From IMG/VR virus record IMGVR_UViG_2802429224_000007, positions 1-13,436 of that record: a stretch of DNA of 13,436 nucleotides. One strand, written 5' to 3'. Source of the stretch: a virus (lineage: Duplodnaviria; Heunggongvirae; Uroviricota; Caudoviricetes). Positions 6,049-13,436 of the stretch are shown here, in pieces (positions within the stretch are counted from its first letter, which is position 1; each line of letters begins with the position of its first letter). The notes beneath the pieces are model-generated. The model was not told the origin of the DNA and ran no database searches. It worked only from the letters and a program-made list of their open reading frames with translations. Made by a program: the position numbers and the translations under genes.

Positions 6049-6187
6049 TACGTATCCTTATACCTGAAATCATCGCAAGTATGCCTGGCCGCGAGATTAT
6101 GGCACACTTGTCCGGTTAACTCTCGTTCTCATACAGGTAGCACAAACGTGAAAATCCTTGTTGATGAAAAAGATGATTGGTTAATTT

Positions 6188-6211
6188 ATTGATATAAAAG
6201 GATTTATATCA
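6188..6211. promoter_or_regulatory. Perfect 10-bp inverted repeat ttgatataaa-agga-tttatatcaa in the flk upstream region
   Basis: Exact palindrome with a 4-nt spacer, AT-rich, about 140 bp upstream of the flk start. Candidate operator or recombination site; function unknown. Confidence 0.3.
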
Positions 6212-6251
6212 ACGTATGTCCACGCAGTGACCACATTTTCGAGATATAGTT

Positions 6252-6285
6252 AAAGCCCGTAAAATATGCGGGCTTTATAATTCTT
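6252..6285 (+). terminator. Hairpin plus T-rich tail (aaagcccg-taaaatatg-cgggcttt, then ataattctt), terminator-like
   Basis: 8-bp stem with a 9-nt loop followed by a T-rich run. No plus-strand gene ends immediately upstream, so it may instead mark the core/island junction. Confidence 0.3.
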
Positions 6286-6327
6286 GCTTTGCCCTCTTTT
6301 CAAACCATAAAATTTGTGTGCCTTTTT

Positions 6328-6334
6328 GGGGGGG
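6328..6334. repeat. G7 homopolymeric tract in the putative promoter region of the 246-aa gene
   Basis: ttttt-ggggggg-ag lies 33-39 bp upstream of ATG 6367. Homopolymeric tracts of this length are uncommon in E. coli intergenic DNA. Confidence 0.9.
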
Positions 6335-6366
6335 AGTTTTATCTTTGATATTATGGAGAATTATTC

Positions 6367-7107
6367 ATGCTTCATTGGGTTTGTACAAAATGTCAGTCTA
6401 AAAATTCTACGAAGGAATCAGTGTGTCCTGCGTGTGGAACTTCTTTTTGGTCGACGCAGAAAAAAGAAAGGAGAGGGTGTTTATTGTTGGTTGTAATGCT
6501 CTTCGTTGTGTTTTGGGTTATTGGGCAATTATCCGGAAACGAATCCGATTCACAGGTAAATAATATTCCATCGAAAGATCATATTAGCGATGAACTTGCT
6601 TTATCTGGAGTAGACAAGGCGAAACCGTATTCTTTTGTGCGTTATGACGACATAAGTTATGCGGGACGAAAGAGATTTAAGGTTTTTATAGTGTCGCCTG
6701 AATCTCAAGATTTAGAATCAAGAGTTTCGACAGCAAGGGCTGCGGCTATTGAGTGGCAGAAAGAAAAGAGAGCTGACTTTGTGTCTGTGTTGCTTCTACC
6801 TACGGAAAATTCGGAAGGTAGTTATCTATTGACAATGGCTGATTATTCTCCTGATGGTTGCGGAACTGGTGCCGTATGTGACAATAAAAAATGGGCTATA
6901 TCATCTAGTGATGTAATATTAACAAAATCACAACTTCAATCCATATCTTTGTGGAATGAATATAAGAAAAAGTTTGCGGGTAATGATGGGGTTTTGGATT
7001 TAAAGGAAGAAAAGAAATTGAAGCAGTTTATTAGTAAGCAGCTAAATATTCCTGTTAAGGATGTATTTGCTCCAAGAGTCTTGCCTTTAAAGGAAATCGT
7101 AGATTAA
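6367..7107 (+). CDS. Hypothetical membrane protein with N-terminal zinc ribbon (CxxC-x13-CxxC), one transmembrane helix and a ~190-aa C-terminal (likely periplasmic) domain
   Basis: 246-aa ORF: CTKCQSKNSTKESVCPACG, then hydrophobic segment CLLLVVMLFVVFWVIGQL, then a K/E/S-rich domain. Markedly AT-rich compared with the flanking core genes, consistent with horizontal acquisition. SD ggag about 8 nt upstream of ATG. Confidence 0.6.
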   Translation: MLHWVCTKCQSKNSTKESVCPACGTSFWSTQKKERRGCLLLVVMLFVVFWVIGQLSGNESDSQVNNIPSKDHISDELALSGVDKAKPYSFVRYDDISYAGRKRFKVFIVSPESQDLESRVSTARAAAIEWQKEKRADFVSVLLLPTENSEGSYLLTMADYSPDGCGTGAVCDNKKWAISSSDVILTKSQLQSISLWNEYKKKFAGNDGVLDLKEEKKLKQFISKQLNIPVKDVFAPRVLPLKEIVD

Positions 7108-7272
7108 CAAGATAGATGGGGCCAAACTGGTATTATTGCAACCCTCACTTGTGAGGGTGCAAAAAACCGTAGTTTTTGCGCTGCGGGTTTCTGCTTTGGG
7201 ATGATAGGGTGCCTTATCGACCTTAACCCTGGCAACCGATTGACGGGGGATTGCTCCCCCGTCGCGGTTTCC

Positions 7273-7413
7273 TTACTGTTTACACTGTAAGAACGCCGCA
7301 AACTCCGCTCCCCAGAAGCTCATCCGTATTTCACACAGCGAGCCGTGCAGCATCCAGATGATGAGGATTGCCGTCACGCAGAACGTGATGACCGTAAGCG
7401 ATTTTTGCGACAT
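7273..7413 (-). CDS. hok: Hok/Gef-family type I toxin (small membrane-depolarising peptide), 46 aa
   Basis: Manual translation of the minus strand gives MSQKSLTVITFCVTAILIIWMLHGSLCEIRMSFWGAEFAAFLQCKQ. It has the family hallmarks: N-terminal transmembrane helix, SLCE(I/L) motif and C-terminal E(F/L)AAFL.CK (compare HokA ...SLCELHIKQESYELAAFLACKLKE). Strong SD aaggag 8 nt upstream of ATG 7413. Not in the ORF track because it is under 60 aa. Confidence 0.82.
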   Translation of the reverse strand: MSQKSLTVITFCVTAILIIWMLHGSLCEIRMSFWGAEFAAFLQCKQ

Positions 7414-7513
7414 AGCGCTTGCTCCTTTTTCGGGGAGGCGCTAACCTATCACTTGCTAAGGGTAGATGGTTAGGGCCTCGGTTAAACAAAAATGTTTTCC
7501 GGGGCCTTTCCAC
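7331..7513 (-). CDS. Mok-like overlapping reading frame (putative translational coupler for hok)
   Basis: 60-codon ORF in a different frame, starting about 100 nt upstream of hok (GTG 7513) and ending inside hok, as expected for mok in hok/sok loci. Basic, low-complexity product. Could also be a chance ORF. Confidence 0.3.
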   Translation of the reverse strand: MERPRKTFLFNRGPNHLPLASDRLAPPRKRSKRYVAKIAYGHHVLRDGNPHHLDAARLAV

Positions 7514-7599
7514 ATCCGGCCTTCAGGTATTCCCTCCAGCCATCAGCCGAAAGGCACCCGCGCGAATTCTAGCTTGGTTTTTTCCCTTGTTTCAATCCG

Positions 7600-7699
7600 T
7601 TGAGGCCTCTCAGCCTTCTGATATAAAATTCCCGACCGCAGACATTATTCAGTCACGCATTTGATACATGCTTCCGCCGGCGTTCGCGCCGGTTTTTTT
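7600..7699 (+). ncRNA. Candidate ~65-nt small RNA: sigma70-like promoter (TTGAGG -35 at 7600-7605; extended -10 TGaTATAAA at 7619-7627) plus strong intrinsic terminator
   Basis: Promoter-like elements with a 16-nt spacer. The terminator (feature below) is about 50-65 nt downstream of the predicted transcription start. No ORF between them. Located on the strand opposite to hok/mok, upstream of mok, so it could be a Sok-like antisense RNA if the hok leader extends this far. Confidence 0.4.
7676..7699 (+). terminator. Rho-independent terminator (GC-rich stem ccggcg-ttcg-cgccgg followed by T7)
   Basis: Perfect 6-bp GC stem with a 4-nt loop, immediately followed by ttttttt. Terminator-competent on the plus strand only. 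Confidence 0.75.
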
Positions 7700-8081
7700 C
7701 GTCCTGTTGCTGCGTAGATCGTCATGTGCGATCGAGGCGCGGTATTGATCCTTTTTTCAGTTTAATTCTGACTCTTGATTTTGCGCAGGCCGCGCTGCGT
7801 CTGGCTTCTTTGTTTGAGGGTTGTTTAACGCGATCCTTTTCGCGATCGTGTCTTGTCCCACGTAAAGTATGAAAACTCTTTTAATATCAGCCTGTTTTCT
7901 TTCTCCTGCCATTCATGAGATCGTAAAAATCCCTCTGAAAACTGCAAAAAATTTCAAAGCGTGAAATTTCAGATCTTCGCTTTTCCCTCAGTTGCTGCGC
8001 GGGCTGGCGGTCATTTTTGCACGGCAGAAAACTGAAAAACTGTTTCGACACAAAACCCGCGGGTTGGAGGGGGTAGCGCGG

Positions 8082-8124
8082 TTTACGTCACCTCACGCTT
8101 TACGTCACACCGTTTACGTGGTGT
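8082..8124. repeat. Three direct repeats of TTTACGTCAC / TTTACGTG (starts 8082, 8099, 8113), the last embedded in a palindrome cacacc-gtttacgt-ggtgtg
   Basis: Direct repeats spaced 17 and 14 bp apart inside an ORF-free region downstream of the phage-like operon. Resembles iteron or arm-type binding-site arrays. Confidence 0.45.
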
Positions 8125-8242
8125 GCGCATACAGCGCCGGAATGGCACGCAGAACGCATTAATCAGGTGGCAGATATGAAAACGCACGGCCTGAACCGTG
8201 CGTTGCGTGATGGGGCGTTTATGTGGATTTTATGCCCGGTGA

Positions 8243-9940
8243 TCAGGCGATAAGGTCGCCGTATTTTTCGCGCAGGCTCGTAGCCTGTTGGGCGTCTGCG
8301 GCAAGTTCGCTGCTGTTTGTTGGTGCGCCAGTGTTGCTGTGGGTGTGGTTTGCAGTGTGTGTGGCCAGCAACTGAACCAGATCCAGAATATCAATCAACA
8401 ACGTCAGCAGATTAAGTCCGGATTTTTCCCGTGAGCCACCGCGCCCAATAAATACAGTCGGGGCGGTAAATTCCAGGCCGCCGTCCGCCCGGCATGTTCT
8501 GCGGCCTCCCACGTTTTCGGTGAGGTTATGCTCGATAGTGGATGTCGCCCCTTTGAGTTTAGTCAGCAAATCCTGCGCTACCATCTGGATATGCTCACCG
8601 GCTGCGATCGCATAATGGCCAGTAGTAATGTGTTCTGTCTGACCTGTCATCAGCTTGCTGGTTCCCAGAACGCTGGTTATGTCGTTTGCCTGTACTGTTG
8701 TTGTTCTGGTTGTTGTTGTGCGTTCTTCCTGATCGCTGTTAATGGTTCGCCTGGCTGAATGCTCCCTGATTTGCTGGTCGGTTTCTCTGTGCCAGCTTCC
8801 GTCAGTCGTGACACGCTGAAACACTTCTGCGCGCTGTTGTTGCAATTGTTCGCCGGGTTTTACATCAGGCAGGTTATGACCAGCGGGTAAGATTTGCCTG
8901 ATAACAGGCTTATCCGGGCGTCCTTCAATGTTGGATATTTCCACGATGGTGCCTGCTGGCGGGTAGGCAAAACATCCCGCCTCACTGCCAGCCATGGGGA
9001 CGGGGAGTGGTACTGCCGGGTAAACAGGCGTATCGTTTTTATCGTTGCCGTTCTCATCAAGCAACTGCACATCGACGGCGTAGCGTGGGCGGAAGCTGTC
9101 GGCCACATCGCCCAGGGTGACGGATTCCGTTGGGGCAATGACGCGCGCCAGCCTGGTATGTAGAGTACCGCTGGCCAGTTCCGGGAACTGTGTTTCCATC
9201 TGTCTGCGCAATGGTGATTTGGAGACAGGGCTGCCCGTGACGGTAAGGCGCTCCCATGTCAGGGTCATTTTCTCGTTGTTGAGGGCTACGCGGGTAATGC
9301 GTCCGGCGGGAAGATTCACGCCCGGTCGCACAGTTTCCATAAACATGATGTCGATGCTGTTTCCGCCGCTTTGCCCGAGTGTGTACTGTTGCGGAATATC
9401 CGGCATTGTAATACTGGCAAATCGTGAATCAGCTGCGCTTCCCACAAATACAGAACCGTCCGGCATAGGGTGCCAGACGTAATCGCTGATACTGAATGCT
9501 CGCCCCAGTTGGCTGAGCAGTTGTGCTCCGCTGCCGCTGTGGGTGATGTAGGGAGTTGGTATACTGGCATAATCCGCATCCGGAGTGATAAAAACGATAC
9601 CGCTTTGTCGCCCCAGATTATCGAGTACCCCCCGCAACGTCGGGTGTTGCATGGAGCAAGGGAAATCAAAATCCAGCACAGCAGCCGCTTCACGAATAAA
9701 AAGGCGACGTGAGCCATTTTCAGCAGGTTGATCGCGCTCAATGTAGCCGGAGAAATAGCGCCATGCTTCACCGTCACGGCCGAGATCAATTTGTACCATT
9801 GCGCCGGCAAGGCTGTGTTCGGGTGACAGATTGTTAACAGAAATGAAGCCACGACCGGCAGCATTCAGGGTAAGAACAAGGCTTATATCGGCAATTTCCA
9901 CCCGTTCGCCATTAATCATGCAGCGTTGTATCAATTTCAT
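8243..9940 (-). CDS. Phage structural protein, putative baseplate hub / central spike or fiber-tip protein (C-terminal HxH metal-binding apex-like motif)
   Basis: 565-aa ORF and last gene of the operon. ATGA overlap with the upstream gene stop; SD gaggaagg upstream. C-terminus ...LLATHTANHTHSNTGAPTNSS resembles the HxH apex motifs of trimeric spikes and fibers (P2 gpV C-terminus HTHKHPGDSGGTTG; lambda Stf HxH repeats). N-terminal region loosely resembles gpD/gp27-like hub proteins. Recalled from memory, no search run. Confidence 0.4.
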   Translation of the reverse strand: MKLIQRCMINGERVEIADISLVLTLNAAGRGFISVNNLSPEHSLAGAMVQIDLGRDGEAWRYFSGYIERDQPAENGSRRLFIREAAAVLDFDFPCSMQHPTLRGVLDNLGRQSGIVFITPDADYASIPTPYITHSGSGAQLLSQLGRAFSISDYVWHPMPDGSVFVGSAADSRFASITMPDIPQQYTLGQSGGNSIDIMFMETVRPGVNLPAGRITRVALNNEKMTLTWERLTVTGSPVSKSPLRRQMETQFPELASGTLHTRLARVIAPTESVTLGDVADSFRPRYAVDVQLLDENGNDKNDTPVYPAVPLPVPMAGSEAGCFAYPPAGTIVEISNIEGRPDKPVIRQILPAGHNLPDVKPGEQLQQQRAEVFQRVTTDGSWHRETDQQIREHSARRTINSDQEERTTTTRTTTVQANDITSVLGTSKLMTGQTEHITTGHYAIAAGEHIQMVAQDLLTKLKGATSTIEHNLTENVGGRRTCRADGGLEFTAPTVFIGRGGSREKSGLNLLTLLIDILDLVQLLATHTANHTHSNTGAPTNSSELAADAQQATSLREKYGDLIA

Positions 9941-11197: not shown

Positions 11198-11766
11198 TCT
11201 GACTCTCCAGCCTGAAAAGCGCGGATGTCGGCAAGATTATTCAGGCTATCCAGCACATCCTTCATCTGTCGCTGACGTCGATAAATTTCATCGTTGCGGT
11301 TAACTTGCGCCCGTGCCATTGCTGTAGCCAGCTCTTCAAGCTCTGGCATCGACATCTTCACTTGTTGATTATCGGCGTCACCCCATGCCATAACGTCCCG
11401 TGCTGTGTCGGATTTCGCAGCCATTACTACCGGATAAAGGCGGGTCAGTGAGTCCGGGCCAGCGTTCCAGGTGCGTCCGTTCCATTCGAATGCGAACGGC
11501 TGCGCTTCCTGTTCTGTTCGCCAGGCTTCGATTTCCTGGCGTTTTGCGGCTTTTGCCGCTGCGATAAGTTCCGGCGTGACGGTGAACGGGGCGATTTCGC
11601 CCCATTTGCCGCTTTGCAGTTCCCGCCAGACTCGCTGGCCTGTTGTTGCTGTGTCTTCTGATGTGGCTGTGTAGGGAACAAATTCCCCCATTCCTTCAAA
11701 AAGCACTTCGCAGTCAATCGCTCCAGATTCCAGATAACGTGGATTCAGAATTTTTATAACTCGCAT
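11194..11766 (-). CDS. Putative tail fiber assembly / chaperone-like protein (190 aa, acidic, helical C-terminal half)
   Basis: TAATG overlap with the upstream 419-aa gene; SD gagga. Position directly after a fiber-like gene and the pattern ...FEWNGRTW...MSMPELEELATAMARAQ... resemble phage tail-assembly chaperone families (DUF4376-like). Assignment from memory only. Confidence 0.4.
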   Translation of the reverse strand: MRVIKILNPRYLESGAIDCEVLFEGMGEFVPYTATSEDTATTGQRVWRELQSGKWGEIAPFTVTPELIAAAKAAKRQEIEAWRTEQEAQPFAFEWNGRTWNAGPDSLTRLYPVVMAAKSDTARDVMAWGDADNQQVKMSMPELEELATAMARAQVNRNDEIYRRQRQMKDVLDSLNNLADIRAFQAGESE

Positions 11767-13025
11767 TACGCAATCCTCATAAACAGCCCTACAACAGCCC
11801 TTGTGTAGACATTGACCGAGTCGGTGCTGGATAAAGAAATGTAAGTGCCTGAAAGGTCGGCTCCACCTACAAGTGCAGTGGGGCCTGATTCAAATCCTGA
11901 AGAACGAAAATCCGCATAAAACGTCGCCTGTCGAAGCCTTGAGCCGGAATATGACCGTCCACGAATCAGCGTTTTTTTGCTTTCGCTGTCTGAATCTCCG
12001 GTATATGCGGCAAGAACAAGTCCTCCAATATCAGGGAGGTTGTGGTATGAGTCAGTCCATGAATACAATACTCGCGTAAAATCATCCACCTTAAGTAGTT
12101 TTTTTTCCCAACTGTCAGGCAGGGTTGCAGGGGTGATACCGCTGTGAATTCTTGCTGTATAACTCTCCCCATTTATTCCTTTAAAAATTACCTGCTTCGT
12201 TTCTTTTTGCTGATTCTCCGGGGTGGTATTTGTGCGAATTTCAATATCCAGATAGCCGGAAAAAACCAGCGTGCTGGGGCCAGTAATTATGGGGTTCTTT
12301 TTACTGCCACCGAACTGGCTGACAAGATAACGCCCGGGTGGTGTTTCACGTACCCACTGTAAAAATTCGGTCGGCCCCCTTTCGGCACTGAATTTAATTT
12401 CCTCTCCATATTTAAACAGTGCACCAAAGCCGAATGCACCTGGTATGGCAAGGCAACCTTCGGTGCGGTCGTAAATATCGCTCTGGGATTCCATTGTAGA
12501 CGCACTTTTTAGTCCCAGATTGTTTCGGGATTCCTGCTGCGCCTCTTCTCCCTCTGCTGCAATTTCTGACAATCGGTTAGGAGCTTTCAGCATTGATTTC
12601 AGCTCGGGGGTAATATCCACCTGCCAGCTCTGTGGAGGAACGGTAATCTGCGCAGCCTGAGCCACGCCCTGATAAGTAATCGTGAAATTCCTGACCAGTG
12701 ACTCGCCAGTATGTTTCTGGCGAACAGGGGTTTTTATTACGCCGCACAGTGTTCTGCTGGCCTGATGAATGAGGCAAATCCAGTCATAGCTGAATGCACA
12801 GTCATCAGGAACAACTGCGCTACACACAATATTGTTCGGGTTTAACTGGCCATAGGTCAGTTCATTCACAGCATATGTGATTTTTTCTTCCGGAACGGTA
12901 TTATCTTCGCGCGTTGGTTCCCGCTCCATCAGAGCAAAAATAATGGCGTCAGGACGTGCAGGTAAATTACTGGCTGTGCATTCGGCAACCCACTTTTCAA
13001 ATGCTTTCGTTAACAGTGCGCTCAT
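11766..13025 (-). CDS. Putative phage tail fiber protein (419 aa) with a divergent tail-collar/fiber N-terminal domain
   Basis: N-terminal ~120 aa follows the spacing pattern of P2 gpH / Mu gpS-type fiber N-domains (VVPDD..F.YDWICL...TL.GV compared with VIPADVGGF..RE.GL.D..G.LIAV), but the conserved GDG motif is absent. Followed by a chaperone-like gene. Low-confidence functional call. Confidence 0.4.
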   Translation of the reverse strand: MSALLTKAFEKWVAECTASNLPARPDAIIFALMEREPTREDNTVPEEKITYAVNELTYGQLNPNNIVCSAVVPDDCAFSYDWICLIHQASRTLCGVIKTPVRQKHTGESLVRNFTITYQGVAQAAQITVPPQSWQVDITPELKSMLKAPNRLSEIAAEGEEAQQESRNNLGLKSASTMESQSDIYDRTEGCLAIPGAFGFGALFKYGEEIKFSAERGPTEFLQWVRETPPGRYLVSQFGGSKKNPIITGPSTLVFSGYLDIEIRTNTTPENQQKETKQVIFKGINGESYTARIHSGITPATLPDSWEKKLLKVDDFTRVLYSWTDSYHNLPDIGGLVLAAYTGDSDSESKKTLIRGRSYSGSRLRQATFYADFRSSGFESGPTALVGGADLSGTYISLSSTDSVNVYTRAVVGLFMRIA

Positions 13026-13031
13026 TACTTC

Positions 13032-13436
13032 TTAATTCTCGCTAATGTTCTGCGGTAATTCTGGCCATACAATCGAGGCATACGATGCTTTATCTGTAAC
13101 CTGGCTGAATGTCATCTGCTGTAGTGCTTTCGCATAAATACGGCATGCTTTCAGTTTTTCCCTGTCTTCGTCGCTGATTAATCCCAGCAGCAGGTCTTTT
13201 TCCCATTCGCTGGTCATGATGCTGGCCTGTTTTAACAGTGCATCACGCTCATCTTCCGCTTTAAGTTTGTAGTCAAAAACAAATGCATCATTGCGGTAGA
13301 ACCAGTAACCCGACGCCTCAATGCGACGATTGGCGGTAATATCCGGTAGCTCAATCACGCTTTTATTTTCCGGGCAGATTGAGGTGATGTCTTTTCCAAC
13401 CCAGACCACTTCGCCAGTTTCAACATAAATAACTTT
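13032..13436 (-). CDS. Tail fiber assembly protein, P2 gpG / Tfa family (5'-truncated by the window end)
   Basis: The frame is open to the window edge; the ORF-track start at 13409 is a GTG and in-frame codons continue upstream (KVIYVETGEVVWVGKD...). Matches gpG-type Tfa as I recall it: VIELPDITANRR (compare VVEVPDITSNRR) and the C-terminal ...Y..L...D....I.WPELP motif. Confidence 0.7.
   Translation of the reverse strand, partial: KVIYVETGEVVWVGKDITSICPENKSVIELPDITANRRIEASGYWFYRNDAFVFDYKLKAEDERDALLKQASIMTSEWEKDLLLGLISDEDREKLKACRIYAKALQQMTFSQVTDKASYASIVWPELPQNISEN

Follow-up and report, generated by a model that had tools for sequence, protein, structure and literature searches.

The window analysed here is the whole 13,436-nucleotide stretch, contig PTST01000056.1 of assembly GCA_002965365.1 from Escherichia sp. 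MOD1-EC5948, in which a prophage end lies beside a chromosomal flank that is ~11% divergent from E. coli. The genes follow one another in the order mnmC, fabB, yfcJ, flk, a DUF4875 gene, a hok/gef toxin gene, and phage baseplate and tail-fibre genes. On the chromosomal side, a match to naRNA4 (RF02564; 63-141, plus strand, 74.8 bits, E = 4e-12), a REP-derived nucleoid-associated RNA, was found 3' of mnmC. The features at the prophage end are as follows.

6150 to 6250, no strand assigned: left end (att-proximal arm) of the prophage; in alignments, similarity to loci L027 and L045 starts at ~6150.
6251 to 6277, plus strand: terminator-like hairpin, AAAGCCCG-loop-GCGGGCTTT; the cassette starts right after it.
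6328 to 6334, plus strand: G7 homopolymer, by direct reading; the same G7AG is present in L008, L054 and L055.
6328 to 6336, plus strand: hypervariable block, GGGGGGGAG in the window, equivalent to an 11-nt G/T-rich block in most relatives.
6355 to 6359, plus strand: Shine-Dalgarno sequence GGAGA, 7 nt before the ATG, by direct reading; the same in all alleles.
6367 to 7107, plus strand: coding sequence of 246 aa with zinc ribbon, transmembrane (TM) helix and DUF4875 (ORF call and Pfam; 'DUF4875 domain-containing protein' in RefSeq).
7167 to 7186, plus strand: terminator-like hairpin, 60 nt past the stop codon; the cassette ends and similarity to the strain no107 prophage restarts.
7273 to 7413, minus strand: hok/gef-family toxin gene, the next prophage gene (from the gene call at L007 3907-4047, transferred to the window; PF01848; RefSeq orthologues).

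The left end of the prophage resembles that of phage P88 (Peduoviridae). In L027, a phage integrase lies directly 5' of the cassette, as in a circular or attP-type junction. The same prophage end is found in L045 beside DUF1391-type genes, at another chromosomal site, which indicates that the phage has at least one integration site besides flk. The hairpin at 6251-6277 is common to strain no107 and phage P88, and similarity to both stops directly after it. The no107 prophage at the same site has no cassette, and P88 (Xuanwuvirus, Peduoviridae) carries a different 80-aa gene at the cassette position. Given this absence, this replacement and the hairpins on either side, the stretch from 6278 to ~7150 is a self-contained cargo cassette (a moron) at the prophage end beside flk, with a promoter that is predicted. 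This promoter must sit in the 89 nt that separate the hairpin from the ATG. Beyond the cassette, the hok/gef region is 90-95% identical to MokW/hok near the end of P88 and of Xuanwuvirus P884B11. Between the hok/gef gene and a 565-aa baseplate gene (8243-9940), ~830 bp (7414-8242) hold no convincing ORF, and an Rfam scan of this interval at the gathering threshold returned nothing, Sok-type RNA included; Rfam likewise gave no match in or near the run region. The DUF4875 gene was present in only 7 of 5426 complete E. coli genomes. Protein-based and DNA-pattern scans of species-representative genomes found the cassette in none, and plasmids held no homologue of it.

The encoded protein belongs to the DUF4875 family (PF16175), with a match over residues 84-236 that exceeds the Pfam gathering cut-off of 25 by a wide distance (111.8 bits, E = 3e-32). 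Its N-terminal CxxC...CxxC zinc ribbon (C6, C9, C20 and C23) falls under the Pfam gathering cut-off; all four cysteines are kept in the five aligned full-length Escherichia sequences, the truncated Citrobacter sequence P0004 in the same alignment being without the zinc-ribbon region. A hydrophobic TM helix is predicted at residues ~38-55. With the conserved cysteines and this helix, the description of a zinc-ribbon membrane gene given in the initial annotation holds. A surface or defence role, of the kind that the initial annotation associates with phase variation, found no backing, as PADLOC defence models did not match the 246-aa protein and its PHROG matches were confined to families of unknown function. 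Furthermore, a literature search on DUF4875 found no publication mentioning it, and the homologues in sequenced phages were only distant ones, in Vibrio and Aeromonas phages. An AlphaFold2 model from a six-sequence alignment was poor (mean pLDDT 54, pTM 0.42). The place of the gene in the prophage suggests that it may serve lysogenic conversion or exclusion. An internal start candidate, TTG at 6484-6486 (codon 40), is accompanied by the Shine-Dalgarno-like GGAGAGGG at 6471-6478; it would yield a 207-aa form that lacks the zinc ribbon and starts at the TM helix, and this form is used in some public gene calls (P0003, P0015 and P0016).

Direct reading of the sequence around the run (...gcctttttGGGGGGGagttttatctttgatattatGGAGAattattcATG) places its seven G residues at 6328-6334 and the ATG at 6367, so that the earlier placement of the run 33-39 bp upstream of the start codon is correct. 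It is the sole G7 or C7 run within the 13.4-kb window. Dinucleotide-preserving shuffles contained a mean of 1.53 such runs, with at least one run in 131 of 200 shuffles, and the run is thus unsurprising on composition alone. Such runs are scarcer in real E. coli DNA than in the shuffles, as a 250-kb sample of the STEC711 chromosome contained three G/C runs of seven or more, from which ~0.16 would be expected per 13.4-kb window. The run is uncommon and unremarkable, and by itself it is no evidence for function. An identical G7AG was recovered in three further contigs (Logan SRR3987707, SRR14986369 and ERR6002191), which rules out an assembly artefact for the G7 of the window; SRR3987707 and the window may stem from one isolate, so the four G7AG contigs come from at least three samples. 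A 60-codon ORF across the run (6314-6496) was rejected as spurious, being out of frame with the gene and lost across length variants. As for the runs in the STEC711 control sample, a G9 (L062 421-429; NZ_CP041416.1 2000421) lies within a glycosyltransferase gene of the O-antigen cluster and could be a frameshift-prone site, while the others are a G8 in gsiA (L063 26312-26319) and a C7 (L062 20364-20370).

We compared the upstream block across 61 homologous loci from complete E. coli genomes, NCBI drafts, Logan and ENA assemblies, one JGI metagenome and IMG/VR. The survey covered 24 of the 57 index blocks holding P0008, and further alleles certainly exist. JGI metagenomes contributed one locus only, with allele A. 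Over the 61 loci the block has ten states, and the other ~78 nt of the 89-nt region from hairpin to ATG are nearly invariant. The states are as follows.

GGGGTGGTTAG: 30 loci, including all complete genomes examined; interrupted.
GTGGTTGTTAG (allele B): 11 loci (L027-L036 and L046); interrupted.
AGGGGAGTTAG: 1 locus; interrupted.
GGGGGAGTAGTTAG, a longer allele: 2 loci; interrupted.
G9TAG: 5 loci; uninterrupted.
G8TAG: 2 loci; uninterrupted.
G7TAG: 4 loci; uninterrupted.
G6TAG: 1 locus; uninterrupted, probably a long-read error.
G8AG: 1 locus (L076); uninterrupted.
G7AG: 4 loci including the window; uninterrupted.

The run is not conserved among carriers of the gene, as 44 of the 61 loci (72%) have interrupted blocks in which the longest run is G4-G5. 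Uninterrupted runs were found in the other 17, in six states. No length change at all occurred in the three 11-nt interrupted alleles (42 loci), and length polymorphism is limited to uninterrupted runs, as slipped-strand mispairing predicts. Across the 17 pure-run loci, the 870-bp cassette has only three substitution sites (6579, 6711 and 7122), and when 11 full-length loci were compared over 3 kb, no site other than the tract had more than two length variants. Substitutions are concentrated in the block as well, with at least 7 steps in its 11 nt versus 3 in the ~78 flanking nt. Allele B has only two substitutions outside the block, and both fall in the TATTAT hexamer at 6349-6354 (GATATTAT to GACATCAT); by position alone, the chance of such a double hit is ~0.006. 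The assembly with G6TAG (L040/L069; GCA_050626015.1, a 5-Mb contig) also has a T7 shortened to T6 at window-equivalent position 7693, and its G6 may therefore reflect long-read homopolymer under-calling.

The comparison of tract length across isolates, proposed in the initial annotation as a check, gave a positive result, with G7, G8 and G9 (and a doubtful G6) in near-identical cassettes. The window thus carries an uninterrupted homopolymer in the slippage-prone range (6-7 units or more), with G7 here and G7-G9 in sister loci. Between strains the repeat number differs by more than one unit, but the sub-lineage of the window has G7AG in four of four contigs. The run originated from the interrupted block. 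G8TAG has the same length as GGGGTGGTTAG and is two T-to-G changes apart from it, which indicates that the run was born by substitutions removing the interrupting T residues and that slippage came afterwards. G/T interchange beside G runs is a classical signature of transient misalignment in replication, and the type of substitution fits transient-misalignment mutagenesis at the run ends. Furthermore, L076 carries G8AG on a P0008-type cassette, a haplotype unlike that of the window, so the T after the run was lost twice independently. From the comparison of these alleles, the run is a genuine slippage hotspot of recent origin.

Changes in length seem to be infrequent. The closest pair with unequal lengths, L070 (G9TAG) and L076 (G8AG), is separated by 23 substitutions in 7.1 kb. 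G9 is constant in five assemblies from two host species (the cryptic clade and E. coli); L068 and L071 both have G9, and they are 1 substitution apart in the host flank and 32 apart over 7.1 kb of prophage. L043 and L044 both have G8 and are identical over 3.1 kb. These comparisons of assemblies, which recombination blurs, suggest that length follows lineage and that the rate of change is well below that of classical phase variation. A rough, recombination-blurred estimate would be ~1e-7 to 1e-6 per generation, which falls short of classical phase variation by orders of magnitude. According to a study of E. coli, indel rates show an exponential rise as homopolymers get longer, and runs of 7-8 G/C stand out as genome outliers (PMC8510543); on this rough reckoning, 1e-7 to 1e-6 would be ordinary for a G8-G9 run with mismatch repair (PMC8510543). 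In a scheme devised for Neisseria, G/C runs of at least 7 count as over-represented (PMC5084427), and by that scheme the tract, with its range of more than one unit, would rank as a moderate rather than a strong candidate. Of the initial proposal, proneness to slippage stands in the pure-run lineage, and the phase-variable switch is improbable, as length tracks lineage and most carriers have interrupted blocks.

A scan for sigma-70 promoters with a heuristic matrix, which gives no more than an indication, had two leading candidates.

6284 to 6313, plus strand: P_A, the best candidate sigma-70 promoter, TTGCTT (6284-6289), 18-bp spacer, TAAAAT (6308-6313); heuristic matrix.
6326 to 6354, plus strand: P_B, the alternative, TTGGGG (6326-6331, overlapping the run), 17-bp spacer, extended -10 TGaTATTAT (6346-6354); heuristic matrix.

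P_A had the top score (12.0) in every allele, and its hexamers and spacing are identical in all ten upstream alleles, the most divergent included. With a predicted start at ~6320, the run would occupy about +8 to +14 of the leader. P_B scored second (10.7), and its spacer varies with the block: 17 bp with G7AG and G6TAG, 18 with G7TAG, 19 with G8TAG and allele A, and 20 with G9TAG. Its predicted start at ~6361 lies 3' of the Shine-Dalgarno sequence and would give a leader of ~6 nt without GGAGA. For the canonical Shine-Dalgarno sequence (6355-6359) to be part of the mRNA, transcription has to begin upstream of it. In allele B (11 loci), the -10 of P_B is changed to CATCAT and the gene is intact. 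A stricter consensus scan returned no plus-strand promoter, neither P_A nor P_B; it missed P_A because the -35 matches at only three of six positions. Judged by the heuristic ranking and the place of the Shine-Dalgarno sequence, the run probably lies in the 5' leader of the gene, with a candidate promoter upstream of it. The initial claim that the run sets promoter spacing would apply to P_B and to no other candidate, and it is weakened by the position of that start past the Shine-Dalgarno sequence and by the mutated -10 of allele B.

RNA folding was predicted for eight alleles. With two assumed starts, Shine-Dalgarno accessibility was 0.32-0.53 (0.44-0.53 save for G9TAG at 0.32), and AUG accessibility was 0.52-0.59. 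A translational switch was dropped as a candidate, because in the predicted folds neither the Shine-Dalgarno sequence nor the AUG becomes masked as run length changes. With an assumed start at ~6288, nearly complete pairing of pure G runs with the upstream GCCCUCUUUU is predicted, the unpaired probability of the run being 0.01-0.04 in pure versus 0.22-0.50 in interrupted alleles, and the minimum free energy (MFE) is ~4 kcal/mol lower in the pure ones.

We lean towards reading the run as a young, lineage-specific repeat that acts as a mutational hotspot rather than as a programmed on/off switch. T-to-G changes turned a G/T-rich block with interruptions, which most carriers still have as GGGGTGGTTAG, into a pure G run. 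The run sits promoter-proximal, probably in the 5'-untranslated region, before a self-contained prophage cargo gene, in a cassette laid out as terminator-like hairpin, putative promoter, zinc-ribbon/TM/DUF4875 gene and terminator. Once pure, it would gain and lose G residues via slipped-strand mispairing, and the flanking T would be lost repeatedly, so that lineages have come to differ, with G7, G8 or G9. The rate would be that of an ordinary long G run in mismatch-repair-proficient Escherichia, with changes falling between lineages and not between sister isolates. If the run is 3' of the transcription start, as predicted, its length changes would have little or a graded effect on expression. 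Several points count against a hotspot with no further role. The promoter candidates behind this reading come from a heuristic matrix, and the stricter scan has no plus-strand promoter. Furthermore, the window allele and G6TAG give P_B an optimal 17-bp spacer, which is possibly not a coincidence, and both substitutions outside the block in allele B hit the -10 of P_B, so that this hexamer is perhaps not neutral. The excess of substitutions in the block fits selection on expression as well as relaxed constraint.

The last point leads to a tentative alternative, to which we give distinctly less weight, in which the block is a tuning knob in the leader. Its length and composition would grade promoter escape, mRNA structure or mRNA stability, and the diversity of the block would represent expression levels selected in each host. 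The crowding of at least seven substitution steps into 11 nt, the repeated change at the 3' edge of the run, and the predicted pairing of pure runs with GCCCUCUUUU at a lower MFE (start at ~6288) are all consistent with it. However, the predicted accessibility of the Shine-Dalgarno sequence and AUG is essentially constant, a mutation-prone unconstrained spacer would give the same pattern, and G/T interchange is what transient misalignment leaves by G runs. A miscalled run length, in the window or between assemblies, is very improbable as an explanation. The G6TAG assembly (L040/L069), with its T7 also read as T6 at 7693, is typical of long-read error; nevertheless, four contigs representing three or more samples agree on G7AG, the states G9TAG, G7TAG and G8TAG recur in five, four and two assemblies, respectively, the lengths agree within haplotype groups, and the other homopolymers of the 3-kb region are constant save for that one T7.

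Phase variation through a promoter spacer is also unlikely in our view. The run would then form part of the TTGGGG -35 of P_B and the start of its spacer, and slippage between 17 and 20 bp would toggle high and low expression. The geometry is that of the poly-G and poly-C promoter switches of Neisseria and Bordetella; P_B is the second-best candidate, its spacer shifts with run length, run length differs among isolates, and the two outside substitutions of allele B both lie in its -10. On the other hand, a start at ~6361 leaves a leader of ~6 nt without the conserved GGAGA, the 11 allele B loci keep an intact gene behind a degraded CATCAT, 44 of the 61 carriers have a non-slipping block with a 19-bp spacer, and length is stable inside lineages. 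Furthermore, Escherichia has mismatch repair, and slippage of G7-G9 would be expected to be orders of magnitude slower than at contingency loci (PMC8510543). In its boldest form, this reading would make the locus a newly evolved phase-variable promoter, created by two T-to-G changes before a prophage membrane-protein gene and spreading between E. coli and the cryptic Escherichia clade, with the 17-bp allele of the window 'on' and G8/G9 'off' or low; we regard this as improbable too. The locus is at most a candidate contingency locus.

The hotspot reading is in line with what is known of E. coli homopolymers. As at non-coding polymorphic homopolymers of this species, a G/C run of 7 to 9 differs between strains by single units, and as at its homopolymer hotspots, the rate would rise steeply with length and no dedicated machinery is involved (PMC8510543). 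Unlike at ordinary E. coli homopolymers, one can trace here, within one prophage cassette, how the repeat arose from an interrupted block, and the run is multi-allelic, its 17 loci showing six states. The porA and opc tracts of Neisseria and the fim tracts of Bordetella share with this locus a G/C tract near -35/-10-like hexamers, a membrane-protein gene, and strain variation in length (PMC1891110, PMC5084427). By contrast, those tracts usually have at least 9 units and are conserved across strains, whereas the run is absent here in 72% of carriers; they lie between mapped -35 and -10 elements, whereas the run here is probably downstream of the predicted start; and they vary within clonal complexes and cultures, whereas length here is stable within lineages, in a host with mismatch repair. 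In kpsC of E. coli, slippage acts on an accessory gene, as here, and the A7 tract changes reversibly from 7A to 6A, a change found in natural isolates as well (PMC13410964).

In E. coli, neuO of prophage CUS-3 is controlled by a heptanucleotide-repeat switch. The repeats of neuO and kpsC lie inside the genes, where slippage shifts the reading frame with a phenotype that has been demonstrated, whereas the run here is 5' of the ORF. The morons of P2-like phages (Peduoviridae) have the same arrangement as the present cassette, terminator, promoter, gene and terminator, flanked by the att-proximal hairpin on one side and the hok module on the other; the cargo differs, being here a DUF4875 protein without a match in defence-system models. 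To our knowledge, a hypermutable tract before a P2-like moron cassette has not been described.

Phase variation in Escherichia proceeds mostly via DNA inversion and Dam methylation. If the run modulates expression, it would count as an uncommon instance of variation driven by repeats in this genus and would attach a testable regulatory feature to the DUF4875 family of prophage cargo; a true phase-variable promoter would be a rare homopolymer-driven contingency locus in this genus, its birth caught in the act. If it does not, the locus is a clean natural case of homopolymer instability arising once an interrupting base was lost. Public genomes still contain the non-slipping ancestor, the substitutions that founded the run and the length variants that followed. 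The interest is modest and lies mainly in this traceable birth of a repeat and in how rarely Escherichia shows repeat-based variation. As a practical warning, the tract site will vary between assemblies.

Elsewhere in the prophage, the tail-fibre genes (window 11766-13436; 15400-19800 in L068-L077) are highly mosaic among otherwise near-identical prophages; their products range from 416 to 810 aa, and they are the source of most differences between these prophages. The prophages of L070 (GCA_910573545.1) and L076 (GCA_015176185.1), compared over 9970-17070, show the 23 differences mentioned above in ~7100 positions, and the host flanks of the two are ~11% apart, one in the cryptic Escherichia clade and the other in E. 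coli. Such near-identity in divergent hosts indicates a recent transfer of the prophage across species.
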